DNA of 41,023 nucleotides from a virus. Its lineage: Duplodnaviria > Heunggongvirae > Uroviricota > Caudoviricetes. The notes beneath the pieces were generated by a model. It saw only the letters and a program-made list of their open reading frames with translations. It was not told the DNA's origin and ran no database searches. The stretch spans positions 1-41,023 of IMG/VR virus record IMGVR_UViG_2690316062_000001; one strand, given 5' to 3'. Positions within the stretch are counted from its first letter, which is position 1. Every line of letters starts with the position of its first letter. Positions 19,364-40,158 of this stretch are shown here, piece after piece. The translations under genes were made by a program, and so were the position numbers.

Positions 19364-19667
19364 TTTTCACCCCTGTCAGTCGTTCCCAGAAGTACGTCAG
19401 TGCAACCGAACCCATCGCACCACTAATCCCCGCTGTCGCGAGAATCATGTAAATACTGAATCCACTTTCGATGCTGATCAGGCCACCAATAACACCGGTG
19501 AATCCTGATACCACTATCTGAGCCAGAGCATTTATCCAACTCCACGTTGCTTTACTCTGCTTCACATCTATCAGGTAGCGGACCAGACCGCCCCAACCTG
19601 CGATGATCAGCAAAACGAGCCAGAACGCTCCGGCAAGGCTCTCTTTTTCGTGCATATGAATAGCCAA
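19350..19667 (-). CDS. Holin (possible dual-start)
   Basis: 105-aa ORF with three hydrophobic segments, MAIHM dual-Met start, 14-nt overlap with endolysin. Confidence 0.7.
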   Translation of the reverse strand: MAIHMHEKESLAGAFWLVLLIIAGWGGLVRYLIDVKQSKATWSWINALAQIVVSGFTGVIGGLISIESGFSIYMILATAGISGAMGSVALTYFWERLTGVKNAKS

Positions 19668-19976
19668 TGTTTCGCCGCCGACAAAAGGCCGGGACGTTAA
19701 ATGTCAGAAATCAGGCTCACGGGGTAATTTAACGACAAAGCACGGAGTTGATGCTCCCCGCAAGCCTGGAATAAAAAAGCCAGCATGTAGCTGGCAACAG
19801 AGGGTTAAGCAATATCAACTCAACAGCTGAAGACACCCTGGCTGGGGTACGCTGGAAGGATACTCACCGCCCAGAAACAGAAAAGCCCAAGGCTTTAAAC
19901 CTCGAGCTTGAATTTGGAATACTGCCAGTGCGTACAACATTGGCAAAATATCAGATTTATACAAAATATATGCTTT
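19668..19976 (-). promoter_or_regulatory. Late promoter / Q-utilisation region (inferred)
   Basis: About 300-bp non-coding gap between the Q-like gene and the holin, the canonical pR'-qut-tR' location. Confidence 0.35.
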
Positions 19977-20666
19977 TTAATCCAGTTTTGCAATATCTTG
20001 CTGTGAAAATGTGGTCTTTTGTTTTGAACGTGTTTTCGTTAAAAGCAATAAAGCTTGGCTATCAAGCTGTAGAAAAATGTGCTTCATTGCAACCCAGCGT
20101 TCAGTAAATGTCTCAGACCAGTTTTTTGATGTCACTCCCACCAGTGATGCCAGCTCCTGGTATTCATAGGTCTTACGCCCTGCCAGCTCGTTCTTCACAT
20201 CCTGTGCCGCCAGCCAGATCAACTTCTTCAAACGTTCCAGTGTCTTACCTGCAATTTTCCTGGTACCCAACAGAGTCTTAAACTCGCTCCATACCCACTG
20301 CGTTATGGTGACCTGATGTTCCCAGCGAACACTTTCGCTGTAACTCCACAGCAACCACGCTTTCTGATGTTCTTCGAGAGACAGAACCGCGCGGCGCCAT
20401 GAAGATGTTGAGAACTCAACCTGGCTGACCAGTGCAATGGATGAACCTTTTGCGTACGACTGCTTACCGGAAATCGGCGGATTATCCAGCGTAATCATCT
20501 TGCCCGTTACCTCATCCAGAATGCGCGGCTTCTTTCGTTTATATTTACCAGTATCAAATTGTGCATGCTCCAGCCAGGCTTCAAGCTGGCCTTTCGTTGC
20601 TCCGCTCAAATCAGCAGTAGCCACAATGAGTTGCTCGCGGACATACTGTAAATATTGGGTATTCAT
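19977..20666 (-). CDS. Antitermination protein Q-like
   Basis: 229-aa ORF immediately after ylcG/rusA and before the late-promoter gap. Confidence 0.7.
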   Translation of the reverse strand: MNTQYLQYVREQLIVATADLSGATKGQLEAWLEHAQFDTGKYKRKKPRILDEVTGKMITLDNPPISGKQSYAKGSSIALVSQVEFSTSSWRRAVLSLEEHQKAWLLWSYSESVRWEHQVTITQWVWSEFKTLLGTRKIAGKTLERLKKLIWLAAQDVKNELAGRKTYEYQELASLVGVTSKNWSETFTERWVAMKHIFLQLDSQALLLLTKTRSKQKTTFSQQDIAKLD

Positions 20667-20803
20667 GCGGCAGCTCCTTTCAGTGTTTTGGCGTAATTCT
20701 TCAGTATCCGGTAATCGGTCAAAACAGAACCGGGAAAACGATATAAGCGCAGGCGCACCCAGCGGCGGCGAAGACGTTCTGCCATATAAGACTCAAACAT
20801 CAT
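20663..20803 (-). CDS. ylcG: Small nin-region protein YlcG-like
   Basis: 46-codon [49 protein letters not shown] with overlaps to rusA (stop) and Q (start); below the 60-aa ORF-track cutoff. Confidence 0.6.
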
Positions 20804-21162
20804 TCATCTCCCAGTTCAGTGATGGTCAGCTCCAGCTTTCCACCTTTGGTAACGGGCATCTTCATAACGCGGTAATCAACGACCTGAGCATCATCCAGCC
20901 AGAAACCTGCTTTGGTGAGTGCGTCAAAAGCGGCCTTTTGTAGATTATCCAGGTCACGGCGACGGCGATCCGGCATGTGACACTCAATGCGGATTTTCAC
21001 TGGCATAGCCAGGCCGATATCCAGCATTGCGTTTTTAATGATTTGAGCGACGTTATCGCGGTATGCCTGTCCCTCTGCGCTGACGTGCGTGCGCCCGCGA
21101 TTATGGCGGTAATAGCGATTATTGCTCGGAGGCCAGGGTAATGTGATGCTGTAGGTATTCAC
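20800..21162 (-). CDS. rusA: Holliday junction resolvase RusA
   Basis: 120-aa [40 protein letters not shown]..., recalled as near-identical to DLP12 RusA. Confidence 0.9.
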
Positions 21163-21449
21163 GCCTTAATAACCCCCTCTTTCAGCCAGATAACCTGTGT
21201 TCTCGCCATACCTTCCAGCGCGCATTCTTTTGCATATGCTGCATCGACAAAATGTGTGCGGCGGTCGATTTCGTCGTGGCAGGCAGAACATGCAATGGTG
21301 GCAATCAGGTCTGGCGGTTTGATACCGGTACCGCACAATCCAGCCAGCCGGATATGTGCCAGTACAGACGTTTCAGGGTTGCCATTACATACGCCAGGGA
21401 TTCTTACCTGGCATTCCCGACCACGCGCTGCTTTTCTCAAATCAGCCAT
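21159..21449 (-). CDS. ybcO: YbcO-like nin-region protein (DUF1364, putative nuclease)
   Basis: Start at [14 protein letters not shown] (ATG overlapping ninE stop); Cys-rich 96-aa protein. Confidence 0.65.
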
Positions 21450-21612
21450 GACTCCTCCTTGCTGCCAGTCGCAACCATTTTTTATCAACCAGGCTGGCGG
21501 TATATCCGAGCAGTGTTGGTATTTCGGAAGGCTTCAGCTCAGGTTTACGCTTACGACGATTTGGTACTCTGTAAATGTGCCCGTTCATGACACGAATAAG
21601 CGGTGTAGCCAT
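21442..21612 (-). CDS. ninE: NinE-like protein
   Basis: 56-aa [64 protein letters not shown] overlap with ybcN stop. Confidence 0.65.
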   Translation of the reverse strand: MATPLIRVMNGHIYRVPNRRKRKPELKPSEIPTLLGYTASLVDKKWLRLAARRSHG

Positions 21613-22067
21613 TACGCCTCCTGCTTGTCGCGCAGCAGCTGGAACTCGCAGCTCGGCGGAATAGTCAGGTGGCAGCCAATATTCATCGCCCAGGCTTCAA
21701 CCTTACACAGGAAGACATACATCTCTCCGGTATCAAGATCGGAGGTATGGCGTAACGACTGAATAGTGGTGATTTCACCGGTTACGACATCAACCAGGTC
21801 TTTGGTTTCATAACCGAGGTATGTGTGTTTGAGAGCATCTTTTACCCATGCTGCAGTAGCGAACGATTTCCCCCTGCTTATGAGGTATTCACTGATTTCG
21901 CTGTACCACATGTGGCTAAGTGCATTCTGGGAAAGACTGCGTCTCTCGCGCCACGGTTTAAGCACCATGCGAAAGCATTTGCCGTCCTCCAGATAAGGCT
22001 GGATCTGCTGACCGATAGCGGTGAAGTTACCGCGATGCAGTTTGATGCCATCTTGTGGTAGGTTCAC
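21612..22067 (-). CDS. ybcN: YbcN-like nin-region protein
   Basis: 151-aa [42 protein letters not shown]..., matches recalled DLP12 YbcN. Confidence 0.7.
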
Positions 22068-22514
22068 GCTTCACCTCCACAGAGGTCAGACGCTGGATGC
22101 AAAAAAACGCAGGTGCATTTCTGCATCTGTGAAGGGAGAAGAGAATTTGGATTGTGTGTGCGCATAAACGTCCCCGTTTAGCGCAGAAGTCACCGAAGTT
22201 GTTCAGGCTCCGGTGATACAATTATGGCGAATTGATTATTCATAATCAAACAAGATAAGGTCTCAAACTTCATGCAAGCCAAGATTTATTTCTGACAGAA
22301 TCATACAAAGAAGCTATTGGTCAGAATCTACTCGGACTGTAAAACATACACATAACCTTAAGCTCTCACTTTAAGCATTGTTGAAATAATACCCGTCAAG
22401 TACAACCTTAACCACGACTGGGATATTTCCCTAGCTACCACGAGTTGTACGGCTATTAAACTGTCGTTAAATTCAGTAAGAGAATTTCATCCGATAAGTC
22501 AAGGCATGTAAAAC

Positions 22515-23558
22515 ATGAAAATTAACAAGATATTATCATCTGCAACACTATTGTATGGTATGTCAATGGCCATGTCGGTCGGGAGTTGTGCAACACCTGT
22601 CCAGACTAATCTTCCTGGTTACACCCCGGGTGCAGATATCATTAGTGTTTCACCGACCAGAAACCAGGTCGATCTCATTGGTGATGTTGTTTATTCCCAG
22701 ATAAAAGGAACTCGTTCTGTCAGACAGCTTCACATGTCAGTTCTTGTCCCACGAACAAATGATTTAAAACCAGCCATTATTTATTATCCCGGCGGCGGAT
22801 TCATGTCTTCTGAACATGACAAATTTATTGAAATGAGAATGGCTCTGGCTGAAGCTGGTTTTGTTGTGGCCGCTGTAGAATACAGAACAATTCCTGATAC
22901 ATTTCCAGCACCAGTTGAGGATGGGAAAGCTGCAATACGTTACTTGAGATAACATGCCAGCGATTATGGGATTGATCCTCAAAGAATCGGAGTTCTGGGT
23001 GACTCTGCCGGTGGATGGCTTGCCCAGATGATGGGAACTACAAATGGTGACAAAACCTTTGATAAAGGTGACTTTCTTCAGCAATCAGCAGATGTTCAGG
23101 CAGTTGCCACACTTTATGGGATTTCTGACTTGTTGAATATTGGCGAGGGGTTCCCTGAATCTGTGCAGGAGGTTCATCGATCTCCTGCCGTAACCGAAGC
23201 CTTAATGATCAATGGCCCTGCATTCAGAAGTTTTGCGGGAGCCCCCATAACAGCGTCAAAAGAAAAAGCGCTAAACGCCAGTCCAATCGGACATATGAAA
23301 GGAGTAAAACCCCCATTTCTTATTATGCATGGTAGCAAAGACACTCTGGTTTCACCTGAGCAAAGCGCCAAACTATTCAGGATGTTGAAGAAGAACGGCG
23401 ATAACGCTGAGTACGTTCTGGTAGAAGGGGCTGAGCATGGCGATAATACATGGTATCAGCCAATTATTATAAACAGAGTTGTTGAGTGGTTTACTAAAAA
23501 CCTGGGAACCCCAATAAAAACCGCTACCCAACAACAAAAAACAAACGCTGACCTGTAA
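22515..23558 (+). pseudogene. Alpha/beta-hydrolase esterase/lipase (GDSAG type) interrupted by in-frame TAA
   Basis: ORFs 22515-22952 and 23028-23558 are in the same frame; TAA at 22950-22952; the YYPGGGF oxyanion motif is upstream and the GDSAGG nucleophile elbow lies between the stop and the next Met. Confidence 0.7.
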
Positions 23559-23616
23559 AAAGCAGCCCACACTTATGCGGGCTAACCTATTTCACTCGAT
23601 TCAAAAGAAATTATTT

Positions 23617-23952
23617 TTAATGTGGTGTGCTTCGTGAAAATAAATTAATAACCAACACACCGGCACAAATCAACATCATGCCTATAATAGCTGGCAGGTC
23701 CAGCCGTTGGCCGAAAAATCCCCATGATAGTAAGCTAATCAGGACAATACCGACTCCTGACCAGATAGCATAAGCAATCCCTGTAGGAATATAAGCCAGC
23801 GTCTGAGCTAATAACCAGAATGATGCACAATAACAAATAATTGTACCAACAGATGGCCATAACCGTGTAAAACCTTCTGAAAACTTCATTAAGGTTGTAC
23901 CAATGACCTCTGCAAGTATTGCACCACCAAGATAAATATAAGGATTCATAGC
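23617..23952 (-). CDS. emrE: SMR-family multidrug efflux transporter EmrE
   Basis: MNPYIYLGGAILAEVIGTTLMKFSEGFTRLWPSVGTIICYCASFWLLAQTLAYIPTGIAYAIWSGVGIVLISLLSWGFFGQRLD... matches recalled E. coli EmrE. Confidence 0.9.
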   Translation of the reverse strand, partial: AMNPYIYLGGAILAEVIGTTLMKFSEGFTRLWPSVGTIICYCASFWLLAQTLAYIPTGIAYAIWSGVGIVLISLLSWGFFGQRLDLPAIIGMMLICAGVLVINLFSRSTPH

Positions 23953-24395
23953 ATATTCTTTCCTGTTCAAACTGGAGAGAATTGTACTACAGTTTGAACT
24001 CAACTCATCTGTTTCATCATTGTGTACCCATTGATGTTCTTTTATATACCCTCAATACCCGTTTCATCGCGGCACTCTGGCGACACTCCTTAAAAATCAG
24101 GTTCGTGCTCACCTTTCCTGCCCGTTCTCCCCGGGTAGCAAACCGATAATACACCGTTCGCCAGTCCTTACTATCAATGACCAAGATTCCTGCCCATATC
24201 ATTTTAGCCGCAGCCTAATTTATGCTGGTTATTGTTACGTGTGAATTCAGTTAGCTGCATAAATTGTCACGGAAGTGATACATCGATATTATCGAGAAAT
24301 TCACTCGAATTTATACGATTGAAACTGCACTTATATCTGTTTTAAATACTCCGAACACTCTTTACAACAACTGTGTGAAAATGGAGATAATTAAA

Positions 24396-25124
24396 ATGAA
24401 AAAGGGTTTGGCTATTTCATTCATTGCCGCCGTGTGTGCATTTGCTGCAAATGCGAGTGCTGAGGAAAGTAAAAACGGGTTTTATCTAACCGGTAAAGCC
24501 GGTGCCTCTGTGGCGTCGTTATCAGACCAGCGTTTTCAGTATGATGAAGGCGATTGGTCAACTGGATTTAAGGGCAGCAACAACCATGACACGGCGTTTA
24601 GTGGTGGTATCGCAGCGGGTTATGACTTTTACCCACAGTTCAGTATTCCTGTTCGTACGGAGCTTGAATTTTATGCCCGCGGAAAGGCTGATACAGAATA
24701 CAATCTTTTTAAGGACGACTGGGTGCGAGCTGACATGAAGAATGAGGTGTCAGTCAACAGCCTGATGTTGAACGCGTACTATGACTTCCGGAACGACAGC
24801 GCATTCACCCCTTGGGTGTCCGCAGGGATTGGTTATGCAAGAATTCATCAGAAATCAACGGGTGTCATCACCTTCGATAATGGATACGGATACAGTGACC
24901 GCGCATCTGATTCCCGTTCAGATTCTTCTGATAACTTCGCATGGAGCCTTGGTGCTGGCGTCCGCTATGACGTAACTCCAGATGTCAGTCTGGACATCAG
25001 TTATCGCTACCTGGATGCAGGTGATGCCAATGTGACTTATACCGATGATTGGGGCGATAAATATAAATCAGATGTTGATGTAAAAAGTCATGACATTATG
25101 CTTGGTGTAACCTATAACTTCTGA
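24396..25124 (+). CDS. Outer-membrane beta-barrel protein (Ail/Lom/PagC-like)
   Basis: Start chosen at the second Met with GGAGA 9 nt upstream; signal peptide MKKGLAISFIAAVCAFAANASA; alternating aromatic/hydrophilic strands; C-terminal ...GVTYNF. Confidence 0.7.
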   Translation: MKKGLAISFIAAVCAFAANASAEESKNGFYLTGKAGASVASLSDQRFQYDEGDWSTGFKGSNNHDTAFSGGIAAGYDFYPQFSIPVRTELEFYARGKADTEYNLFKDDWVRADMKNEVSVNSLMLNAYYDFRNDSAFTPWVSAGIGYARIHQKSTGVITFDNGYGYSDRASDSRSDSSDNFAWSLGAGVRYDVTPDVSLDISYRYLDAGDANVTYTDDWGDKYKSDVDVKSHDIMLGVTYNF

Positions 25125-25172
25125 ACAAACCTTTTCTAAATTATAATTACACGCTTACTGTGATTAACTAAA

Positions 25173-25206
25173 GCCCCCTGCAATATATTGCTATGGGGGG
25201 CTCTTT
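25173..25206 (+). terminator. Candidate terminator after OMP gene
   Basis: GCCCCC...GGGGGC stem enclosing a GCAATATATTGC palindrome, then TCTTT. Confidence 0.4.
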
Positions 25207-25605
25207 CGCTCATCGTGCAGGATGATTTTTGCCTAATTCCGTTATCACCACAATAATATTCATCGACATTTTCTTAATGGACACCTGAAAATATTTTATC
25301 GGGTAATATTCCGAGATTTTATTGTTTTTATTCTTTTCCGTTATCTCTGATAATATTGTAAGCATCCGGTGAACTCGCCTTGCGTGGACTAGCCAGTCGT
25401 TGTAGCACTGACGCCGCTGCGTTGAGTTCTTTTTTTCGCCATCAGCTCTCCTGCTTCTGTAGATAAAGAAGAGACAGAAGAATGGCGTTGATCACAACGA
25501 CCAGTAATGCGAATTCATCGGCCCCTCACACTGTTACCGCGGCAACGTCCTGCGCACAGAAGCTCTTATGCGTCCCCAGGTAATAAATAATTGCCTCTTT
25601 GCCCG

Positions 25606-26307
25606 TCATACACTTGCTCCTTTCAGCCCAAACTTAGCTTTGATTTCTGCGATCTTCGCCAGAGCCTGTGCACGATTTAGAGGTCTACCGCCCATGACAG
25701 GAAGTTGTTTTACTGGTTCAGGTATCGCCTCACCACGGTTAATTCGCGCGGTCATACAGGTCAGCTCATCGGCAGCTTTACGCCGTAATTCCGCGTCAGT
25801 CAGCGCATTGGCCCGCATGTTCTGGTACAGATTGGTAACCAACCAGTAGTGCGCGTTTGATTTCCATGGATAAGACTCTGCGTCCGGATACAGGCCACGC
25901 TTCCGGCAATACTCGTAAACCATATCAACCAGCTCGCTGGCGTTTGGCAGCCCGGCGGTAACGGATGCTTCTTCACGGCACCAGGCAACAAACTGCCCGG
26001 GTGATGGCAGGAATGGTCGATTCTGCCGACGGGCTACGCGCATTCCAGCGTTAACCTGTTCCATCGTGGTGATCCCATTTTCCCGGAAAGCCAGAACCCA
26101 CTGGCGGCGGATTTCGTTCAGTTCGTTCTGGTCCCGGTTAGCCAGGCTCGCCGGGAAAGTTGCCAGTAACTGGCTGAACACACCATTGATAATCTGCGCT
26201 ACCTGCTGTACCTGCGGCTTTTCGTCGTACTGTTCCGGCATGTTATTGGCGATCCGACGCATCTGCTCACGGTCAAAGTTAATCATCTGTGCGGCGATGT
26301 TTTTCAT
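25606..26307 (-). CDS. P: Replication protein P (DnaB helicase loader)
   Basis: 233-aa ORF MKNIAAQMINFDREQMRRIANNMPEQYDEKPQVQQVAQIINGVFSQLLATF..., recalled as near-identical to lambda P. Confidence 0.9.
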   Translation of the reverse strand: MKNIAAQMINFDREQMRRIANNMPEQYDEKPQVQQVAQIINGVFSQLLATFPASLANRDQNELNEIRRQWVLAFRENGITTMEQVNAGMRVARRQNRPFLPSPGQFVAWCREEASVTAGLPNASELVDMVYEYCRKRGLYPDAESYPWKSNAHYWLVTNLYQNMRANALTDAELRRKAADELTCMTARINRGEAIPEPVKQLPVMGGRPLNRAQALAKIAEIKAKFGLKGASV

Positions 26308-27233
26308 AGATCCACCCCGTAAATCCAGTCTGTGTTTGTCAGGTCGAGTTTTGGTTTTCCGGCTGTCACGCCAGCCTGTTGTTTGTTACGGTTGATTTCG
26401 AGTTGGGTCCACTTGTCGCGAAGTTTGGCCGGGCTCAGCACGTTACCGGACCAGAAGTTGTCCTGGCATGCCCAGCGGAAAAGCACGCACATGTCGCGGT
26501 GGTTACGTCCGTCACGTTCACGCATCAGGCGGATATCGTTAGCCCACCCTGCAAAATTCGGTTTTCTGGCTGATGGTGCGATGGTCTTCACCATGTCAAA
26601 CATCCACTCTGCGGCGGTCAGGTCTTCTGCTGTCCCCCACTTGCTGCCGCTCTGAATTGCAGCATCTGGTTTCACCACAGGAAGATCGTTTTCTGGTTGG
26701 TCAGAGGATTCGCCAGAATTCTCGGACGAAAAAGGTTTTATATTGTCTTTTGTTAGTTTGTCTTTTGTGTTTACCTGATTCGGGTAAACGCCTTTACCTG
26801 ATTTGGGTAAACTTTTCTTACCTGATTCAGGTAAATTTACCTCTTTCAGGTAAACTTTATTTTTCTTACCTGATTCGGGTAATGTTGACCATTCACTGAC
26901 CACATTATTAATACCGATATTCCGCCCGCTCTGAATCAAAATCCCACGCTTTACCAGAACACTTTTTGCAGCAGAACACTTGTGCGGTAATATCCCGGTC
27001 AATCCGGACAGTTGCTCGTTGCTCACCCAATCCAGTTTTTTATTAAAGCCATATGTTTTGCGCATGACAGCCAGGAAGACCAGAAGCTGGTGCTGTGTTA
27101 ATCCGGCCAGCATCACAGCTTCCAGCAACTCATTTGCAATGCGCGTATAACCATCATCGAGATCTGCCACGCGCGGCTCCTTTTGTGCCGCATCCGGCAC
27201 TGGAAAATTGAATATCTCAGCAGTGTTTGCCAT
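26304..27233 (-). CDS. O: Replication initiator O
   Basis: Start set at MANTAEIFNF with GGGAGG 5 nt upstream; ADLDDGY motif; iteron array inside the gene; ATGA overlap with P. Confidence 0.8.
   Translation of the reverse strand: MANTAEIFNFPVPDAAQKEPRVADLDDGYTRIANELLEAVMLAGLTQHQLLVFLAVMRKTYGFNKKLDWVSNEQLSGLTGILPHKCSAAKSVLVKRGILIQSGRNIGINNVVSEWSTLPESGKKNKVYLKEVNLPESGKKSLPKSGKGVYPNQVNTKDKLTKDNIKPFSSENSGESSDQPENDLPVVKPDAAIQSGSKWGTAEDLTAAEWMFDMVKTIAPSARKPNFAGWANDIRLMRERDGRNHRDMCVLFRWACQDNFWSGNVLSPAKLRDKWTQLEINRNKQQAGVTAGKPKLDLTNTDWIYGVDL
26781..26894. repeat. Replication origin iterons (5 copies of about 19 bp TTACCTGATTCGGGTAAAC)
   Basis: Copies at 26781-26799, 26804-26822, 26828-26846, 26847-26865, 26876-26894, each internally palindromic (TTACC...GGTAA), inside the O gene as in lambda ori. 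Confidence 0.75.
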
Positions 27234-27319
27234 AATTCCTCCCGCAATGAGTGTGTTACGATTTGCACCTGAAAGTCGGTTCTGTTCCAGCAGACCGGCT
27301 TTCGCCATTTCTGAACCTG

Positions 27320-27865
27320 TCATATCGCCCCCAGCATGGTAGTAACCATCGCCATCAATGGACCAGCCAGATCTGGGTCCACACGAAACATCGATACAAT
27401 ACCTTCACTAATTTCCTTCAGTTTCTGGTGGCGTGGTGCGTTGAGAATGACAGCCTGTTTTGCCTCACTGAGTTCCTTTTCCATTTCAGCCAACCTAGCC
27501 ATGAAGCTATCCTGCTCAACCAGGTAACCGCGATATTCCAGCGGTAGTACCGCCAGAATTGCCGGGGTCAGTTCACGCACGTTATTTCGGTATTTTTCAG
27601 AATCGAATTTGTTATCGAGGAAGCGGAACAGCTTCTGGCGTGCACGGCTGACATCATCAGGGAAATCGATGGTGCCGCCGCCCTGCTCCCGATACTCATT
27701 CACAATGAGTGTGGCAACGACATCCTGATTATCTACAGCCGACCAGGCGCGGACGGCATCACGGATTTTTTCGTGGCCTGCCACCTGTTTTGTTTGAGAA
27801 CGATTTATCACCGCAGTCGGGCTAAATCCGCTAGTCTGTTGGTATGTAAGTGGTTGCATAGTCAT
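27320..27865 (-). CDS. YdaT-like regulatory protein (cII position)
   Basis: 181-aa ORF between cro-like gene and O; motifs NEYREQGGG and ILAVLPLEYR resemble recalled Rac YdaT. Confidence 0.5.
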   Translation of the reverse strand: MTMQPLTYQQTSGFSPTAVINRSQTKQVAGHEKIRDAVRAWSAVDNQDVVATLIVNEYREQGGGTIDFPDDVSRARQKLFRFLDNKFDSEKYRNNVRELTPAILAVLPLEYRGYLVEQDSFMARLAEMEKELSEAKQAVILNAPRHQKLKEISEGIVSMFRVDPDLAGPLMAMVTTMLGAI

Positions 27866-27889
27866 TGCCTTATCAGTTAACGCCGCAGT

Positions 27890-28117
27890 TTAGGCGGCAG
27901 AATTACTCGCGTTAAACAATGGTGCGAGGTCGGGACGAATATCTGCTGGTTTAATCTTTCCACCAGTGGCTGAGACAATTTTCATTACATAGCGGGCATC
28001 AATTCCGCCACCGTGTAGCCAACGCCAAACTGTGGGTTGGGCTACACCGCATAGATCTGCCAGTCGTTTTTGACTGCCTGTAATACTGATTGCGAGTTGA
28101 ATGGTTTGATTTGTCAT
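27890..28117 (-). CDS. Cro/YdaS-like HTH repressor
   Basis: Start at ATG preceded by AGGA; HTH QKRLADLCGVAQPTVWRWL; divergent from cI. Confidence 0.6.
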   Translation of the reverse strand: MTNQTIQLAISITGSQKRLADLCGVAQPTVWRWLHGGGIDARYVMKIVSATGGKIKPADIRPDLAPLFNASNSAA

Positions 28118-28151
28118 TATCAATTCCTATTGGTATTGCAATGAATGAATA

Positions 28152-28180
28152 ATAGCAATGCGTATTAATCCAAGCAATAG
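28152..28180 (-). promoter_or_regulatory. PR-like promoter for the cro/replication operon
   Basis: Minus strand TTGCTT-17 nt-TATTAT upstream of the cro-like gene; overlaps AGCAATAGCAA operator-like motif. Confidence 0.45.
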
Positions 28181-28191
28181 CAAAACGTGTT

Positions 28192-28220
28192 TTGACCATC
28201 AATACGCAAGCGTATAAATT
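28192..28220 (+). promoter_or_regulatory. PRM-like promoter for cI (near-leaderless)
   Basis: TTGACC then 15-17 nt then TATAAA/TAAATT; expected start lies within a few nt of the cI ATG at 28228. Confidence 0.4.
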
Positions 28221-28227
28221 AAAACTT

Positions 28228-28920
28228 ATGAAAAAAGAAACTCTTGCTGATCGCTTAAATCTAGCGATGGAACAATCTGGAATGTCTCAAGGCGCTCTTG
28301 CAAAGGCGTCTGGCGTAGCTCAACCCACAATCTGGAGACTGACAAGCGGCAACGCGCGCGGCTCAACAAAAATTGTTGAAATAGCTAATGCATTGGGTGT
28401 TCGAACAGAATGGCTCTCTTCAGGCATAGGCCCGATGAGAAATGACGGTCAACAATCAGGGAAGCCTGCTGTCAGCCATTCCAAATACTTCAAAATTGAC
28501 GTTCTTGATATAGAAGTCAGTGCCGGGCCGGGTGTAATCAACCGTGAGTTTGTAGAAGTTCTACGCTCGGTTGAATACTCGTTTGACGATGCTCGTCACA
28601 TGTTCGATGGCAGGAAGGCGGAAAATATCCGCATCATTAACGTGCGTGGTGACAGCATGTCAGGAACGATCGAACCAGGTGATCTGCTGTTCGTTGATAT
28701 CACGGTTAAATCTTTCGACGGTGATGGTATCTATGCGTTTCTGTATGACGACACCGCCCATGTAAAACGCCTGCAAATGATGAAGGATAAGCTGCTGGTT
28801 ATCTCTGATAACAAGAGCTACTCACCGTGGGACCCGATCGAGAAAGACGAGATGAACCGCGTGTTCATCTTCGGGAAAGTCATCGGGAGCATGCCGCAGA
28901 CATATAGAAAGCATGGGTAG
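28228..28920 (+). CDS. CI-type repressor (HTH plus S24 LexA-like autopeptidase)
   Basis: N-terminal HTH QGALAKASGVAQPTIWRL; C-terminal GDSMSGTIEPGDLLFVD (Ser) and HVKRL (Lys) catalytic dyad. Confidence 0.85.
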   Translation: MKKETLADRLNLAMEQSGMSQGALAKASGVAQPTIWRLTSGNARGSTKIVEIANALGVRTEWLSSGIGPMRNDGQQSGKPAVSHSKYFKIDVLDIEVSAGPGVINREFVEVLRSVEYSFDDARHMFDGRKAENIRIINVRGDSMSGTIEPGDLLFVDITVKSFDGDGIYAFLYDDTAHVKRLQMMKDKLLVISDNKSYSPWDPIEKDEMNRVFIFGKVIGSMPQTYRKHG

Positions 28921-29004
28921 AAATCAGAACAAAATTATGCACTTCGCTTTTCAGCTTACTGTAGTAAGGCAATAAATTAGGCTTGACGTTAGCTATCAGG
29001 TGCA

Positions 29005-29019
29005 CAACAATAATTGTTG
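29005..29019. promoter_or_regulatory. Perfect 15-bp palindrome CAACAATAATTGTTG upstream of cassette
   Basis: Read directly; lies 31 nt upstream of the 29050 ATG, after a TTGACG -35-like hexamer at 28983-28988. Confidence 0.4.
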
Positions 29020-29049
29020 AATAATAGGTTTTTTTAACTAGGTGATAAC

Positions 29050-30189
29050 ATGGCAGCGGTTGAATTTCAATTGTCTAGGAAGATGATTGATTGGATAGCA
29101 AATTCTCAAGGAGTTTCTATCGAAACTCTTGCTGACCAAGTCATGCCCAAAAAGATTAATAAATTTCTTAACGGAGTGGTAAGTAAATCCGCAGCAGAAA
29201 AACTGGCAAAAATTGGAGGAATCCCTTTCGGTTTTTTATTTCTTGAAACGCCACCAACTCCAGCCAAACCCAAGATCCCTGACTTAAGGCAAGCTATAAA
29301 TAGCCGTGAGTTAGGAAAAGATTTTTTTGATGTTTACTATGATATAGAATATAAACTTGAGTGGTACAAAGACTATTTAAGAGAAAATGGTAATGATGAT
29401 CCACTCGATTTTATTGGTAAATTTAAATTTAATAGAAAATTAAATTATAAGGTTGTTGCTACAGACATAGCAAACACAATACATTTTGATATACAAAAAG
29501 AGATAAAAAATGTCACTTTTGAGAGCTATTTTTCTAAAGTGGCAAAATTAATAGAAGACACTGGCGTATTAGTTTTCAAGAATGGTGTTGTGGGTAATAA
29601 TAATAAAAGAAAACTTGACACGCGAGAGTTTCGTGGTTTCTGTATATCTGATAGCGTTGCTCCGATCATTTTTGTAAATAGCTCGGACGCGTTATCTGCG
29701 CAGGTATTTACATTATTTCATGAGGTGGCTCATCTTTGGCTTGGAGTCGATGGAGTCTCTGGGTGGGACACAGAAAAAAACATAGAATCTTTTTGTAATA
29801 AAGTTGCTGCTGAAATCTTAATGCCTGATAATCTCTTCAAATCTTTCTGGCTTAATGCATCCAGCGATAATAATTATTATCGAGTAAAAGAGGTTTCTAA
29901 GTTATTTAAGGTTAGTGATTTCGCTTGTGCAATCAAAGCGTTACAATTAGATTTGATAGAAAGAAACACTTTGGAGATAATTAAAGATCAAGCTTACAAT
30001 AAGCCCAAAAAAGAATCTAATGGTGGTTCTTTCTTTAACACATTACCTGTTCGTAACAGTCCAAAACTTACGAATATAATAATTTCCAAAGCAATGTCTC
30101 AACAATTACCATTAAGGGAAGCAGGCGTACTGCTAAATGTAAAAGCAGATACAGTTGTTGAATTTTATAAAAAACGAGAATCTCTATGA
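29050..30189 (+). CDS. HTH domain fused to ImmA/IrrE-family zinc metallopeptidase (COG2856)
   Basis: AGGTGA RBS; N-terminal HTH-like segment; HEVAHLWLG (HExxH) followed by VAAEILMP, the ImmA/IrrE signature; strongly AT-rich. Confidence 0.8.
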   Translation: MAAVEFQLSRKMIDWIANSQGVSIETLADQVMPKKINKFLNGVVSKSAAEKLAKIGGIPFGFLFLETPPTPAKPKIPDLRQAINSRELGKDFFDVYYDIEYKLEWYKDYLRENGNDDPLDFIGKFKFNRKLNYKVVATDIANTIHFDIQKEIKNVTFESYFSKVAKLIEDTGVLVFKNGVVGNNNKRKLDTREFRGFCISDSVAPIIFVNSSDALSAQVFTLFHEVAHLWLGVDGVSGWDTEKNIESFCNKVAAEILMPDNLFKSFWLNASSDNNYYRVKEVSKLFKVSDFACAIKALQLDLIERNTLEIIKDQAYNKPKKESNGGSFFNTLPVRNSPKLTNIIISKAMSQQLPLREAGVLLNVKADTVVEFYKKRESL

Positions 30190-30698
30190 TTCATAATGGA
30201 AAATTCTTAATTGATAGTAATGTCTTCATAGAGGCAAAAAACTTTGCATATAACTTCAATTATTGCAAAATATTTTGGGATTTTCTTCTCGCTTTACACA
30301 TTAATGGTCTGATTTATAGCATTAATGCTGTAAAAAAAGAACTATGTGCAAAAGATGATCCATTGTGTAAATGGATTAAAGAAGAGTTACCATCATCATT
30401 CTTCGAAGATGAGCATAGTTCAATAGAAAATTATGCAAAGTTAATAAATTGGTCAACTAAATTAGATGTTACCGAAAAGGCAAAGTTTGATTTTGCAAGC
30501 CATGAAAAAGCAGATGCTTTTTTAATAGCCCATGCGATGACACATGGATATACTATTATTACCCATGAGAAACCATCCGGTGGCAAACCTAAAAAAAGAA
30601 TAATGATCCCGGATGCTGCTGCTTCTCACGGCGTTAAGACATTAACACTATATGAATTTCTTCCAAGATACGCTAGTCATAATTTTTCTTTGAAATAA
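30186..30698 (+). CDS. PIN-like nuclease domain protein (DUF4411 family)
   Basis: ATGA start/stop overlap with upstream gene; N-terminal FLIDSNVFIEAKN PIN-like strand with Asp; further acidic residues spaced as in PIN folds; ...IAHAMTHGYTIITHE. Confidence 0.7.
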   Translation: MIHNGKFLIDSNVFIEAKNFAYNFNYCKIFWDFLLALHINGLIYSINAVKKELCAKDDPLCKWIKEELPSSFFEDEHSSIENYAKLINWSTKLDVTEKAKFDFASHEKADAFLIAHAMTHGYTIITHEKPSGGKPKKRIMIPDAAASHGVKTLTLYEFLPRYASHNFSLK

Positions 30699-30703
30699 AA
30701 CGT

Positions 30704-30730
30704 CCCGGCCACCGTGCCGGGTTTTCTTTT
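30704..30730 (+). terminator. Rho-independent terminator ending the cI-cassette operon
   Basis: CCCGGC-caccgt-GCCGGG followed by TTTTCTTTT, 6 nt after the stop at 30698. Confidence 0.7.
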
Positions 30731-30860
30731 GCCTCCCCTCATCACACACACCGTTCAAAAAACCACCACAACCCCGCTTCAGTTATCGCTATGCGATGCA
30801 AGTCACAAAATTAATTCTTTTTGCTATCAAATATTTAATATCAAAACACATCTAGCAATA

Positions 30861-30889
30861 GCAATAAGTATTGATATCATCAATAGCAA
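30861..30889 (+). promoter_or_regulatory. PL-like promoter with operator-like repeats
   Basis: TTGATA-17 nt-TATTAT; spacer and flank carry AGCAATAGCAATA / CAATAGCAATAGC, the same motif as in the cro-cI intergenic region. Confidence 0.45.
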
Positions 30890-31176
30890 TAGCTATTATC
30901 ACCATGTCGCAACAACACAACGATACGGCAATCACCTGATTCACCGTTGCGATGACCGCTTAGATCCGCAGCTTGAATTTCAGCAGGCTCCGGGGAGTGC
31001 GAGGGGTGAAGCGGACGCGTGAACGTCGGTGTGACCAGCTGAAATCAACTCAACACTTCATACCTTAGTCGCTTCAACGAGGCGGCTTAGTTATGACAAC
31101 CGGCGGCCATCCACCGCCTGAATACGCGCAGAAGTCTCTATATGTTCAGCAGCCCAGCTTACGGGCAGGAGTTTTT

Positions 31177-31383
31177 ATGGTTCATCAACATTACGGAACG
31201 CAGACCGTTAATCGCGGCGCGGTCATGCCAGGAATGCTGGTCAAACACAAAGATGGTACCTGGACTGCATCAGCTAATTTACGCGGACGGCTTTATCTGC
31301 ATCGCGGCATCGAGCGCACTTATACCCGTGATTTGCTCGTGGAAGTTTTTCTCGACGGACGCGGTAACGGCCTGAATCACTAA
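31177..31383 (+). CDS. Hypothetical early protein (kil/cIII position)
   Basis: 68-codon ORF starting at ATG with CAGGAG 7 nt upstream (MVHQHYGTQTVNRGAV...); the longer 31093 start lacks an RBS. Confidence 0.35.
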   Translation: MVHQHYGTQTVNRGAVMPGMLVKHKDGTWTASANLRGRLYLHRGIERTYTRDLLVEVFLDGRGNGLNH

Positions 31384-31459
31384 CCCCCCTTTCCTGTTTT
31401 CCTAATCAGCCTGGCATTTCGCGGGCGCTATTTTCACAGCCATTTTCAGGAGTTCAGCC

Positions 31460-31756
31460 ATGAACGCTTATTACATTCAGGATCGTCTTGAGGCTCAGAG
31501 CTGGGCGCGTCACTACCAGCAGATCGCCCGTGAAGAGAAAGAGGCAGAACTGGCAGACGACATGGAAAAAGGCCTACCCCAGCATTTGTTTGAATCGCTC
31601 TGCATCGATCATTTACAACGCTGCGGGGCCAGCAAAAAAGCCATTACCCGTGCATTTGATGACGATGTTGAGTTTCAGGAGCGCATGGCAGAACACATCC
31701 GGTACATGGTTGAAACCATTGCTCACCATCAGGTTGATATTGATTCAGAGGTATAA
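31460..31756 (+). CDS. gam: Gam, RecBCD inhibitor (short GamS-length form)
   Basis: 98-aa [63 protein letters not shown]..., recalled as near-identical to lambda GamS. Confidence 0.9.
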
Positions 31757-31761
31757 AACGG

Positions 31762-32547
31762 ATGAGTACAGCACTCGCAACGCTGGCTGGGAAGCTGGCT
31801 GAACGTGTCGGCATGGATTCTGTCGACCCACAGGAACTGATCACCACTCTTCGCCAGACGGCATTTAAAGGTGATGCCAGCGATGCGCAGTTCATCGCAT
31901 TGTTGATCGTCGCCAACCAGTACGGCCTTAATCCGTGGACGAAAGAAATTTACGCCTTCCCTGATAAGCAGAACGGCATCGTTCCGGTGGTGGGCGTTGA
32001 TGGCTGGTCCCGCATCATCAATGAAAACCAGCAGTTTGATGGTATGGACTTTGAGCAGGACAATGAATCCTGCACATGCCGGATTTACCGCAAGGACCGC
32101 AATCATCCGATCTGCGTTACCGAGTGGATGGATGAATGCCGCCGCGAACCATTCAAAACCCGCGAAGGCAGAGAAATCACCGGACCGTGGCAGTCGCATC
32201 CCAAACGGATGTTACGTCATAAAGCCATGATTCAGTGTGCCCGTCTGGCCTTCGGATTTGCTGGTATCTATGACAAGGATGAAGCCGAGCGCATTGTCGA
32301 AAATACCGCATACACTGCAGAACGTCAGCCGGAACGCGACATCACTCCGGTTAACGATGAAACCATGCAGGAGATTAACACTCTGCTGATCGCCCTGGAT
32401 AAAACATGGGATGACGACTTATTGCCGCTCTGTTCCCAGATATTTCGCCGCGACATTCGCGCATCGTCAGAACTGACACAGGCCGAAGCAGTGAAAGCTC
32501 TTGGATTCCTGAAACAGAAAGCCACTGAGCAGAAGGTGGCAGCATGA
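31762..32547 (+). CDS. bet: Bet (Red-beta) single-strand annealing protein
   Basis: 261-aa [69 protein letters not shown]..., matches recalled lambda Bet. Confidence 0.95.
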
Positions 32548-33224
32548 CACCGGACATTATCCTGCAGCGTACCGGGATCGACGTAAGAGCTGTCGAACAG
32601 GGGGATGATGCATGGCACAAATTACGGCTCGGCGTCATCACCGCTTCAGAAGTTCACAACGTGATAGCAAAGCCCCGCTCAGGAAAGAAGTGGCCTGACA
32701 TGAAAATGTCCTACTTCCACACCCTGCTGGCTGAGGTTTGCACCGGTGTGGCTCCGGAAGTTAATGCTAAGGCGCTGGCATGGGGAAAACAGTACGAGAA
32801 CGACGCCAGAACCCTGTTTGAGTTCACTTCCGGCGTGAATGTTATTGAATCCCCGATCATCTATCGCGACGAAAGTATGCGTACCGCCTGCTCTCCCGAT
32901 GGTTTATGCAGTGACGGCAATGGCCTTGAGCTGAAATGCCCGTTTACCTCCCGGGATTTCATGAAGTTCCGGCTCGGTGGTTTCGAGGCCATAAAGTCGG
33001 CTTACATGGCCCAGGTGCAGTACAGCATGTGGGTGACACGAAAAGATGCCTGGTACTTTGCCAACTATGACCCGCGTATGAAGCGTGAAGGACTGCATTA
33101 TGTCGTGGTTGAGCGGGATGAAAAGTACATGGCGAGTTTTGACGAGATGGTGCCGGAGTTCATCGAAAAAATGGACGAGGCACTGGCTGAAATTGGTTTT
33201 GTATTTGGGGAGCAATGGCGATGA
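32544..33224 (+). CDS. exo: Exo (lambda exonuclease)
   Basis: 226-aa [47 protein letters not shown]..., matches recalled lambda Exo; ATGA overlap with bet. Confidence 0.95.
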
Positions 33225-33403
33225 CGCATCCTCACGATAATATCCGCGTAGGCACGATCACTTTCGTCTACTCCGTTACGAAGCGAGGCTGGGTATTTCC
33301 CGGCCTTTCTGTTATCCGAAATCCCCTGAAAGCACAGCGGCTGGCTGAGGAGATAAATAATAAACGGGGAGCTGTATGCACAAAGCTTCTCCCGTTGAGT
33401 TAA
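33215..33403 (+). CDS. Hypothetical protein
   Basis: 62-aa ORF overlapping the exo stop; no recognisable motif. Confidence 0.3.
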
Positions 33404-33567
33404 GAACGAGTATCGAGATGGCACATAGCCTCGCTCAAATTGGAGTCAGGTTTGTGCCAATACCAGTAGAAACAGACGAAGAATTTCATACGTTAGCCGC
33501 ATCCCTTTCACAAAAGCTGGAAATGATGGTGGCGAAAGCAGAAGCAGATGAGAGAGACCAGGTATGA
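33376..33567 (+). CDS. Hypothetical protein (lambda b-region orf63-like)
   Basis: 63-aa acidic [26 protein letters not shown]... Confidence 0.45.
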   Translation: MHKASPVELRTSIEMAHSLAQIGVRFVPIPVETDEEFHTLAASLSQKLEMMVAKAEADERDQV

Positions 33568-33647
33568 CAACCACTGAATGCATTTTTCTGGCAGCGGGCT
33601 TCATATTCTGTGTGCTTATGCTTGCCGACATGGGGCTTGTTCAATGA
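33564..33647 (+). CDS. Candidate small hydrophobic peptide (27 aa)
   Basis: MTTTECIFLAAGFIFCVLMLADMGLVQ; ATGA-type overlaps at both ends (with 33376-33567 and 33644-33859). Confidence 0.25.
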   Translation: MTTTECIFLAAGFIFCVLMLADMGLVQ

Positions 33648-33859
33648 CACCTCAGCAAGAAAACGCCCTTCGCAGCATTGCCCGTCAGGCTAATTCTGAA
33701 ATCAAAAAAGCCAGACAGCAGTTTCCGGATAATAACGTCGATGACATTTGCCGTAGCGTACTAAAGAAGCACCGCGAAACGGTAATGCTGATGGGATTCA
33801 CACCGACTCATTTAAGCCTGGCGATCGGCATGTTGAACGGCGTCTTTAAGGAACGGTGA
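33644..33859 (+). CDS. Hypothetical protein
   Basis: Start at internal Met MTPQQENALRSIARQ... of the 33578 ORF, overlapping the small-peptide stop. Confidence 0.4.
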   Translation: MTPQQENALRSIARQANSEIKKARQQFPDNNVDDICRSVLKKHRETVMLMGFTPTHLSLAIGMLNGVFKER

Positions 33860-33957
33860 ACATGAAAAGCAAAATCATCAGGGAGCTACAGGCTCCTTTT
33901 TTATTATTCGCATTTACCCTCAAGCGTATTAACCAACAATTCAGGGATTAATGAAAG

Positions 33958-34176
33958 ATGGCAGACATCATTGATTCAGCATCAGAAATCGAAGAATTAC
34001 AGCGCAATACAGCAATAAAAATGCGTCGTCTGAACTACCAGACTGTATCCGCAACTCATTGTTGTGAGTGTGGCGATCCGATAGATGAGCGAAGACGCCT
34101 GGCTGTTCAGGGTTGTCGGACTTGTGCGAGTTGCCAGGAGGAGATCGAACTTAAGAACAAACAATGGGGACTGTGA
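33958..34176 (+). CDS. TraR/DksA-family C4 zinc-finger protein
   Basis: 72-aa ORF with CxxC...CxxC (CCECGDPIDERRRLAVQGCRTCASC). Confidence 0.75.
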   Translation: MADIIDSASEIEELQRNTAIKMRRLNYQTVSATHCCECGDPIDERRRLAVQGCRTCASCQEEIELKNKQWGL

Positions 34177-34223
34177 TGGCCTCAAAGCAGCAAATTTCAA
34201 CATCGTCCAACTGAGGTGTAAAA

Positions 34224-34502
34224 ATGTTCAGAATCATTTTTCCTAACACCTGGTACGTCGACCACCACGGCACTCCCTGCAAAATCCTGCGTTCTACCCA
34301 CAACAAAGTTCACTACATCCGAAAAGGCAGAACATGTATCGCCAGCATGTTCCGCTTTAATCATGACTTTGAACCTGTGAATAAAGCTGATGCAGATCGG
34401 ATAGCAGAAGAGATCGAAACGGCAGAACACATTAAGAAGTTACGTGACATGCGTTCAAAAAGCAGAGGTAACCATGGAATCATACAGCCTCACACTCGAT
34501 GA
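34224..34502 (+). CDS. Hypothetical protein
   Basis: 92-aa ORF upstream of xis; basic. Confidence 0.35.
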   Translation: MFRIIFPNTWYVDHHGTPCKILRSTHNKVHYIRKGRTCIASMFRFNHDFEPVNKADADRIAEEIETAEHIKKLRDMRSKSRGNHGIIQPHTR

Positions 34503-34824
34503 GGCCTGTCAGTTTCTTAAGATATCCAGACCAACCGCCACCAACTGGATACGAACAGGCCGCCTACAGGCAACACGCAAAGACCCCACTAAACTAAAAT
34601 CTCCTTACCTCACAACACGACAAGCCTGCATTGCGGCGCTTCAGTCTCCGCTGCATACTGTCCAGGTGAGCGCGGGTGATGGCATAACAGAGGAAAGAAA
34701 ATGTCACTCTTCCGCAGAGGTGAAATATGGTACGCCAGTTTCACATTGCCGAACGGTAAAAGATTTAAACAGTCTCTTGGAACAAAGGACAAAAGGCAGG
34801 CGACAGAGCTCCATGACAAGCTAA
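34474..34824 (+). CDS. xis: Excisionase (P22 Xis-like)
   Basis: 116-aa product from [32 protein letters not shown] (HTH); overlaps the int start by about 120 nt. Confidence 0.65.
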
Positions 34825-35864
34825 AGGCTGAAGCATGGCGGGTCAGCAAACTTGGTGAAATACCTGATATGACGTTCGAGGAGGCGTGTATCAGGTGGCT
34901 CGAAGAGAAAGCACATAAAAAATCACTGGACGATGACAAAAGCCGGATCGGATTCTGGCTTCAACATTTCGCAGGAATGCAACTAAGAGACATTACTGAA
35001 TCAAAAATTTATTCAGCAATGCAGAAAATGACGAACCGGCGTCATGAGGAAAACTGGAAACTCAGGGCAGAAGCATGCAGAAAAAAAGGGAAACCAGTTC
35101 CAGAATACACGCCAAAACCAGCGTCCGTTGCAACGAAGGCTACGCATCTTTCATTTATAAAGGCCCTGCTAAGAGCCGCAGAGCGTGAATGGAAAATGCT
35201 GGATAAGGCACCAATTATTAAAGTGCCTCAACCAAAGAATAAACGGATCCGCTGGCTGGAGCCCCATGAAGCACAAAGGCTGATTGATGAATGTCCGGAG
35301 CCATTAAAGTCTGTTGTTGAATTTGCACTGGCAACAGGCTTAAGACGCTCGAACATCATCAACCTTGAATGGCAACAAATAGATATGCAGCGCCGGGTGG
35401 CATGGATAAACCCGGAAGAGAGTAAATCAAACCGCGCAATTGGCGTTGCGCTGAATGATACTGCATGTCGCGTATTGAAAAAACAAATCGGGAATCATCA
35501 CCGTTGGGTATTTGTGTACAAGGAAAGCTGTACCAAACCAGACGGAACGAAAGCGCCAACAGTAAGGAAGATGCGGTATGACGCAAACACAGCCTGGAAA
35601 GCAGCGCTGAGACGGGCTGGTATTGATGATTTCAGATTTCACGACTTGAGACACACCTGGGCAAGTTGGCTGGTTCAAGCCGGAGTCCCGTTGTCAGTGT
35701 TACAGGAAATGGGAGGCTGGGAGTCTATCGAAATGGTTCGTCGATATGCTCACCTTGCACCTAATCACCTTACCGAACACGCACGGCAAATAGACTCGAT
35801 CCTGAACCCATCGGTCCCAAATTCGTCCCAGTCAAAAAATAAGGAAGGTACTAATGATGTGTAA
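34701..35864 (+). CDS. int: Tyrosine integrase (P22/DLP12 Int-like)
   Basis: 387-aa [45 protein letters not shown]...; catalytic-domain motifs ...[10 protein letters not shown]...RYAHL; stop 16 bp from the att core. Confidence 0.9.
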
Positions 35865-35880
35865 CTTATTGATTTAAATG

Positions 35881-35928
35881 GTGCCGATAATAGGAGTCGA
35901 ACCTACGACCTTCGCATTACGAATGCGA
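35881..35928 (-). other. att core: 48-bp copy of the 3' end of tRNA-Thr(CGU) (thrW-type), not a complete tRNA
   Basis: Reverse complement GCATTCGTAATGCGAAGGTCGTAGGTTCGACTCCTATTATCGGCACC corresponds to anticodon loop (CGT), T-arm and acceptor 3' strand of tRNA-Thr; flanking sequence on the 5' side does not continue the tRNA. Confidence 0.7.
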
Positions 35929-36012
35929 AGTTTTTATATTTTAACTGCTTGAACAACCATCAGAAATCACAAATTTATCATTTTAAATCATAATATTAAA
36001 ACAAAAAACCTG

Positions 36013-39537: not shown

Positions 39538-40158
39538 ATGGAATTATATCATGGTTCCCATGGTGAGCATGTACTCGCCTATAGAAAGCATATTGAGCGA
39601 GTCGTTAATGATGCTGTCAGTGAATTCCCTAGAACAATGGCATTACGTGTTGATGCCCATTACCCCCCTATTTTAGATAGAGGTGATACGGTTTGCTGCT
39701 TTCCTAATCTAGAGCCTGGTGCCATATCCCGTTTCCGTAATGCATTAAATGCCATGTTGGAGGCCAATGAGAGAGCCAGAGCCGCCAACGGTAAAAGAAT
39801 ATATTCAAATCGTGTTCGTCATGTTTGGGTAAGGGAGTTTTCCGAAGAGGGGAAATGTCATTTTCATCTTGGTCTTTTTTTTAACAAAGATGCTTATTAC
39901 CATTTAGGTGATTATGAGGCTGAAAGCAATTTACGGATGATGATTGTAAGGGCATGGTACAGTGCCCTGGGGTTGGAACTGGATGATTATCCGGGATTAG
40001 TTCACTACCCTGAAAATTGTCGTTATATATTAGACGTCAATGATTTTAACTTTGAAGGAGAATACAATAAATTACTGAATCGCTTCGACTACCTAGCTAA
40101 ACTCGATACAAAAGCATATGGAGATGGCGACCGTAGCTTCGGCTGCAGTCGCGGTTAA
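39538..40158 (+). CDS. Inovirus Gp2-family protein (YagK/YfjJ-like)
   Basis: 206-aa ORF MELYHGSHGEHVLAYRKHIERVVNDAVSEF..., resembles recalled CP4-type island proteins. Confidence 0.6.
   Translation: MELYHGSHGEHVLAYRKHIERVVNDAVSEFPRTMALRVDAHYPPILDRGDTVCCFPNLEPGAISRFRNALNAMLEANERARAANGKRIYSNRVRHVWVREFSEEGKCHFHLGLFFNKDAYYHLGDYEAESNLRMMIVRAWYSALGLELDDYPGLVHYPENCRYILDVNDFNFEGEYNKLLNRFDYLAKLDTKAYGDGDRSFGCSRG

Follow-up and report, generated by a model that had tools for sequence, protein, structure and literature searches.

The locus at 22515-23558 raises the question of whether two adjacent open reading frames (ORFs) in an Escherichia coli prophage encode two small hypothetical proteins or the remains of a single enzyme and, in the latter case, whether the stop codon that parts them is genuine and what became of the enzyme. 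The whole stretch of DNA analysed here, 41,023 nucleotides in length, is referred to as the window, and its early region is lambdoid and lies on the - strand. The elements of the interrupted gene are the following:

22515..22589, + strand: start codon and export signal, comprising MKINK, a hydrophobic stretch and the lipobox-like S-V-G-S-C25 (Cys codon 22587-22589)
22515..22949, + strand: N-terminal fragment, codons 1-145, carrying the PGGGF oxyanion-hole motif (92-96) and the first central beta-strands, without any catalytic-triad residue
22950..22952, + strand: premature ochre stop TAA, apparently derived from GAA (Glu146) via G>T at 22950
22953..23027, + strand: 25 in-frame codons (HASDYGIDPQRIGVLGDSAGGWLAQ) without a canonical start, containing the nucleophile elbow G-D-S164-A-G-G (Ser codon 23004-23006)
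23028..23558, + strand: C-terminal fragment ORF, 176 aa from Met171 (ATG 23028), with Asp276 (23340-23342) and His308 (23436-23438), the nucleophile Ser being absent

According to the translation and the ORF listing, 22515-23558 (+) constitutes a single 347-codon alpha/beta-hydrolase frame, in which the TAA at 22950-22952 is the sole break and which is shared by the 145-aa ORF (22515-22952 including the TAA) and the 176-aa ORF (23028-23558). The Pfam family PF20434 (BD-FAE) was matched over residues 80-290 with 151.7 bits against a gathering cut-off of 26.8 (E 2.7e-44), and PHROG 3341, named 'esterase', over residues 40-339 (E 1.9e-129). Since the Pfam and the PHROG matches are each single and span the stop, the two ORFs represent one gene rather than a chance juxtaposition, exactly as an earlier note on this DNA had claimed from the two same-frame ORFs parted by one TAA. 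That note had also placed the GDSAGG elbow within the 25-codon gap from the stop to the next Met, which agrees with the position of the Ser164 codon, and no in-frame ATG, GTG or TTG was found between the stop and Ser164. Because GDSAGG falls in these 25 codons, neither ORF should encode an active enzyme.

The residues G162-D163-S164, G166-G167, D276, H308 and P92-G-G-G-F96 were invariant in alignments of 30 and of 34 homologues, and S164, D276 and H308 align with the triad region of solved esterases. On this evidence, the three residues are the predicted Ser-Asp-His triad and P92-G-G-G-F96 the predicted oxyanion-hole glycine motif. The arrangement is the same as in BD-FAE, the bifunctional feruloyl/acetyl-xylan esterase that founded PF20434, whose triad is Ser128/Asp237/His269 (PMC8165983). 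By sequence, the nearest solved structures are those of Lip_vut4 (6NKF, E 6.6e-37), a Bacteroides eggerthii GH43-CE protein (6MLY) and BD-FAE (6XYC, 6TKX). The AlphaFold2 (AF2) model of P0004, a near-identical intact protein, is an alpha/beta hydrolase (pLDDT 76, pTM 0.77), for which Foldseek returned 6NKF, 6XYC, 6TKX and 6MLY as top matches with probability 1.00. In this model, residue 146 ends the helix 132-146, just ahead of the strand 153-163 that leads to Ser164, and the break at codon 146 thus interrupts the central sheet of the predicted fold.

Taken together, the profile matches and the model indicate that the restored protein would be an alpha/beta-hydrolase carboxyl/carbohydrate esterase of the BD-FAE family, whereas the coding sequence of the window copy is itself interrupted by TAA at codon 146. 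Although it shares the family, the fold and the Ser-Asp-His triad with BD-FAE, the window protein is only about 25% identical to it, and BD-FAE is encoded in a metagenome-derived polysaccharide utilisation locus (PUL) and not on a phage. No solved structure is closer in either sequence or fold (Foldseek E 8e-26, TM 0.71-0.81) than that of Lip_vut4, a lipase/esterase of goat rumen metagenomic origin, but this protein is 32% identical to the window protein and does not possess the exported N-terminal extension. As all NCBIfam matches were sub-threshold (LipQ, PaeX, Aes and others), they provide no equivalog name.

At the N-terminus, K2 and K5 are followed in the translation by a hydrophobic stretch and then by S-V-G-S-C25, which presumably fits the PROSITE-type lipoprotein lipobox pattern; the Ala at +2 after Cys25 would, on our assumption, send the protein to the outer membrane. 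Cys25 is common to the E. coli phage alleles, is replaced by Tyr in P0004, the cluster representative, and is absent from most homologues. The ancestor would have carried a signal peptide, probably of the lipoprotein type, and the signal-peptide-like N-terminus described previously can be specified as a lipobox-like VGS-C25 whose Cys is not conserved outside the phage clade.

The chromosomes of Dickeya, Pectobacterium, Pantoea, Kluyvera, Kosakonia, Klebsiella, Enterobacter and Rhizobium carry the closest relatives outside E. coli, at 62-80% identity. The Dickeya 'ferulate esterase' and its Pectobacterium, Pantoea, Kluyvera, Klebsiella and Rhizobium orthologues share the same motifs and 62-72% identity over the whole mature protein. 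In contrast to the window protein with its lipobox-like Cys, these Dickeya-type orthologues, encoded on the chromosomes of plant-associated bacteria, have a Sec signal that ends in A-x-A, and a classical A-x-A signal peptidase I site is likewise found in the Dickeya, Pantoea, Klebsiella and other homologues. The nearest named relative is the D. aquatica protein P0094, whose source name is 'Ferulate esterase' and which is 66% identical. Two feruloyl esterases, FaeD and FaeT, are known in Dickeya (bioRxiv 10.1101/568105), and FaeD is a secreted feruloyl esterase (PMC9007343). Judging by its signal peptide, P0094 is probably FaeD rather than FaeT.

Therefore, of the earlier label 'esterase/lipase', the first half stands, whereas 'lipase' is less apt than carbohydrate/carboxyl esterase, considering that BD-FAE is the best family and the Dickeya 'ferulate esterase' the nearest named relative. 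The likeliest ancestral substrate class would be acetyl or feruloyl esters on polysaccharides. The literature search turned up neither expression nor activity measurements for the family in E. coli, nor any report of the substrate of the esterase or of its role in lysogens; on esterases in lambdoid prophages, it returned only papers on the unrelated NanS-p and on sRNAs. The NanS-p sialate O-acetylesterases of Stx prophages are likewise prophage carbohydrate esterases and lysogenic-conversion cargo, but they have an unrelated fold and family (PF03629/SGNH) and a late-region position beside stx and the lysis genes.

The ancestral state of codon 146 was approached by alignment to intact homologues, the check that the earlier note had suggested. 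The window gene differs from the intact gene of E. coli Rb-50, whose prophage alpha/beta hydrolase is WP_137502009.1, at 4 of 1044 nt, one of which is G>T at 22950 (GAA>TAA). The same gene is present in phage 4A7 (Bievrevirus bv4A7, NC_049946) as gp57 'esterase' (YP_009909478.1), with 98.4% nucleotide identity, and in phages Lambda_4C10, D2, 1W, 3W, PhiR47_2 and Perceval, so that eight deposited phage records correspond to seven distinct phages (two accessions belong to 4A7). None of the phage copies is interrupted, and where the window has TAA they read GAG (Glu), as in 4A7. In all 30 aligned homologues, position 146 is a sense codon (E, Q or A). When Glu is restored, the window protein becomes identical to the intact E. 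coli protein P0001 (e.g. CAK0712020.1), which was found on 156 public contigs. By these comparisons, the ancestral codon is evidently GAA, encoding Glu146, and, because the Glu-restored protein matches a known intact protein exactly, the stop should be both the only lesion and a recent one.

Accordingly, the preferred reading, to which we assign a probability of about 90%, is that the locus is an allele, recently turned into a pseudogene, of an exported BD-FAE/PHROG 3341 esterase carried by the prophage. The ancestor would have been a 347-aa exported esterase with the oxyanion-hole PGGG motif and the Ser164-Asp276-His308 triad, in which a single G>T transversion at 22950 would have converted Glu146 (GAA) into an ochre stop. 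Translation would then end after 145 residues, ahead of the strand and the nucleophile elbow, with the loss of all three catalytic residues, and re-initiation at Met171 would yield a fragment devoid of the nucleophile and of the N-terminal half of the fold. Since the 145-aa product would lack the triad and the Met171 fragment the nucleophile, the gene is presumably non-functional, and the proposal that an alpha/beta-hydrolase had been inactivated by one nonsense codon is thus upheld as far as sequence can speak for inactivity. The loss would most simply be explained as neutral decay of dispensable cargo.

The alternative that retains most weight, while still being unlikely, holds that the loss was selected rather than neutral, the exported esterase being costly in some hosts or niches, where knock-outs recur. 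The gene was found in 681 of the 5,426 complete E. coli genomes, 671 of which contain 80% or more of it at a single site, and the carriers include ST131 strains such as EC958. Disruptions that are independent of the window allele do exist, such as an ISEc23 insertion near esterase codon 266 in E. coli AZ 191 (L012 3516-7099) and an esterase frameshift in E. coli A1.S1.65 (L014 416-1458). Additionally, the TAA allele has persisted into several samples, one copy having diverged by 19 SNPs in the flanks, which would also suit a selected loss. However, in an even sample of 60 records, 57 presented one full-length colinear match annotated as alpha/beta hydrolase, and the remaining three (H128, H170, H171) comprised one IS1 insertion and two truncations. 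A disruption rate of ~5% is what is expected for dispensable prophage cargo and is by itself no argument for selected loss. Furthermore, the intact alleles differ mostly at synonymous sites (dN/dS about 0.07-0.15), indicating that the intact gene is maintained by selection, and such strong purifying selection speaks against the advantage of losing it, as does the fact that the disrupted alleles do not cluster by host or niche. A more specific form of this idea, in which the esterase would be a lysogenic-conversion factor that is costly under some conditions, the TAA one of several selected knock-outs and the loss of the enzyme advantageous in certain gut hosts, is considered slightly less probable still.

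A sequencing or assembly error, with GAA as the true sequence and the gene intact, has very little probability left. It would be consistent with the otherwise flawless gene and with the rarity of the allele: an exact 60-nt probe centred on the stop was found in 0 of 5,426 complete E. coli genomes, a result that applies to the local haplotype of the window, given that TAA on another background would be missed, and the same probe matched 30 complete E. coli genomes when one mismatch was allowed. In opposition to this, exact-protein look-ups with the 145-aa and 176-aa sequences led to four independent public datasets, produced with different assemblers, in which the TAA was verified in the DNA on the same haplotype:

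ERZ28578782: TAA allele, 100% identical to the window over 3,789 nt
ERR14061116: TAA allele, 100% identical to the window over 2,483 nt
ERZ1755931: TAA allele, 100% identical over 1,487 nt
ERZ27239104: TAA allele, 99.6% identical over 4,957 nt, with no differences within the gene

The recurrence of the same TAA haplotype in four independent assemblies rules out a private sequencing error, and the allele is, on these comparisons, evidently real, heritable and confined to a minor lineage of the prophage. The finding that the earlier note had named as its refutation, a sense codon at 22950-22952 upon resequencing, is very unlikely, considering that the same T is present in all four assemblies. 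In the comparison across strains that it had called for, the allele is rare. On the ERZ1755931 contig, the esterase gene is joined with a GH3 glycosidase, and this contig may be a metagenomic chimera.

The look-up with the 145-aa protein matched many contigs and, among the matches listed, five of eight end 1-2 nt past codon 145. These five (L003, L006-L009) carry the wild-type GA(G/A) and not TAA, their ends being equivalent to 22950-22951. An IS insertion hotspot at this point was considered and ruled out, as complete genomes with that haplotype are continuous there, and the breaks most likely reflect an assembly-graph branch at the synonymous GAA/GAG polymorphism. They inflate the apparent database count of the '145-aa protein'. 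GCA_021649245.1 was also rejected as a TAA carrier: it encodes the 176-aa ORF, but its codon is GAA, and its esterase gene is cut at the window equivalent of 22899 by unrelated sequence.

It is similarly hard to credit that the stop is read through or suppressed, by programmed recoding or by a host ochre suppressor, with some active full-length esterase being made. The stop is followed by C, and TAAC is not the strongest termination context; moreover, the downstream frame is still entirely intact, which is, however, explained by a recent mutation. Among the stops, UAA leaks least in E. coli, and there is no tRNA gene in the prophage. A stop is absent from this position in all 30 aligned homologues, and the nearest alleles from E. 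coli and phages have GAA or GAG; since all homologues have a sense codon there, the stop is not a conserved recoding site. Finally, that the two ORFs form a functional split enzyme, or that the 145-aa lipoprotein fragment has acquired a new function, can be practically dismissed, for, although public assemblies annotate each of the two as a gene, Ser164 lies in neither of them, no canonical start precedes it after the stop, and the cut would fall within the central sheet of the predicted fold.

Returning to the preferred reading, that of a recently inactivated prophage esterase, the pseudogene is part of a cargo island inserted into the early region, whose gene order is ydaT, O, P, cargo, ybcN, ninE, ybcO, rusA, ylcG and Q. 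The elements of this island are the following:

22068..25605: cargo island of 3.5 kb and 43% GC, between ybcN and replication gene P, with the esterase pseudogene (+), emrE (-) and an outer-membrane beta-barrel gene (+)
23563..23584: GC-rich hairpin where the convergent esterase and emrE genes meet, scoring as a - strand terminator, with the T-run on the emrE side
23617-23949, - strand: emrE, within the cargo island and convergent with the esterase
24375-25124, + strand: outer-membrane beta-barrel gene (Pfam OMP_b-brl, 1.7e-23)

The esterase gene has 44.2% GC (GC3 36.8%) against about 50% in the flanking early genes, and it lies on the + strand, whereas the - strand carries O, P, ybcN, ninE, ybcO, rusA and Q, in full accordance with its previous description as AT-rich and opposite to the early operon. 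In related prophages, the content of this slot varies and includes ybcK, an inverse autotransporter, an OMP gene or a ren-like gene. Its designation as a moron is therefore adequate in the broad sense of dispensable cargo with atypical GC in a variable slot, but not in the sense of an autonomous transcription unit, since the hairpin has its T-run on the emrE side and a consensus scan of 22068-22514, which is weak evidence either way, detected no + strand sigma-70-like promoter. An Rfam scan of the whole window detected no RNA element near the esterase gene.

In phage 4A7, the esterase gene occupies the same slot as in the window, between the replication/emrE region and ybcN and on the strand opposite to the early operon, but the place taken in the window by the outer-membrane beta-barrel gene is filled in 4A7 by ybcK and a ren-like gene. 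The ren-like gene, of 100 aa, is found at this place in both Rb-50 and 4A7. The beta-barrel gene at 24375-25124 (+), which also shows a weak PHROG Lom match and a sub-threshold match to the Rickettsia Adr adhesin, accompanies the TAA esterase allele in ERZ27239104 and ERZ28578782. With regard to emrE, the ORF as called (23617-24003, -) starts at TTG and encodes 128 aa, and the NCBIfam EmrE model aligns to residues 19-128; therefore, the real emrE is taken to be the 110-aa form starting at 23949.

The locus is thus an ordinary pseudogene and its lesion an ordinary nonsense mutation; the family, the PHROG and the RefSeq phage and bacterial annotation were already known, and the TAA allele was already present, unremarked, in public assemblies. 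The appropriate label is pseudogene (internal stop) of a prophage alpha/beta-hydrolase esterase, instead of two hypothetical proteins, and beyond correct annotation the importance of the lesion is small. Of mild wider interest is that ~1/8 of complete E. coli genomes carry on prophages an exported esterase akin to probable ferulate esterases, and what such a widespread exported prophage esterase does in E. coli lysogens is a question of some interest. For a study of its role, the natural TAA allele, one base from an intact allele, represents a ready-made isogenic negative control.

Some further features of the prophage were observed. It is a mosaic: the morphogenesis module (1 to about 19,350) is of the SfI/SfII/SfV myovirus type, with 97% identity to Shigella phages, and is joined to an emrE-containing early region (19500-35900) of the DLP12/lambda-like kind. 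In the immunity region, two paired genes (29050-30698, +), one for an ImmA/IrrE-type metallopeptidase (Peptidase_M78) and the other for a DUF4411 protein, adjoin a cI-like repressor (28192-28920), and together they may form a cargo module with a defence or toxin-antitoxin-like role. Immediately following the prophage integrase (34701-35864), a tRNA-like sequence at 35882-35954 (-) scored 36.3 bits with Rfam and was not called by ARAGORN; it corresponds to the 3' part of a tRNA (…GGTTCGACTCCTATTATCGGCACCA), which we take to be thrW, and marks the attachment site. It is followed by a second integrase (36111-37430; Arm-DNA-bind_3 and Phage_integrase) and by a YagK/YfjJ-family gene (39538-40158), which suggests that a second, CP4-6-like island lies in tandem at the same tRNA site.
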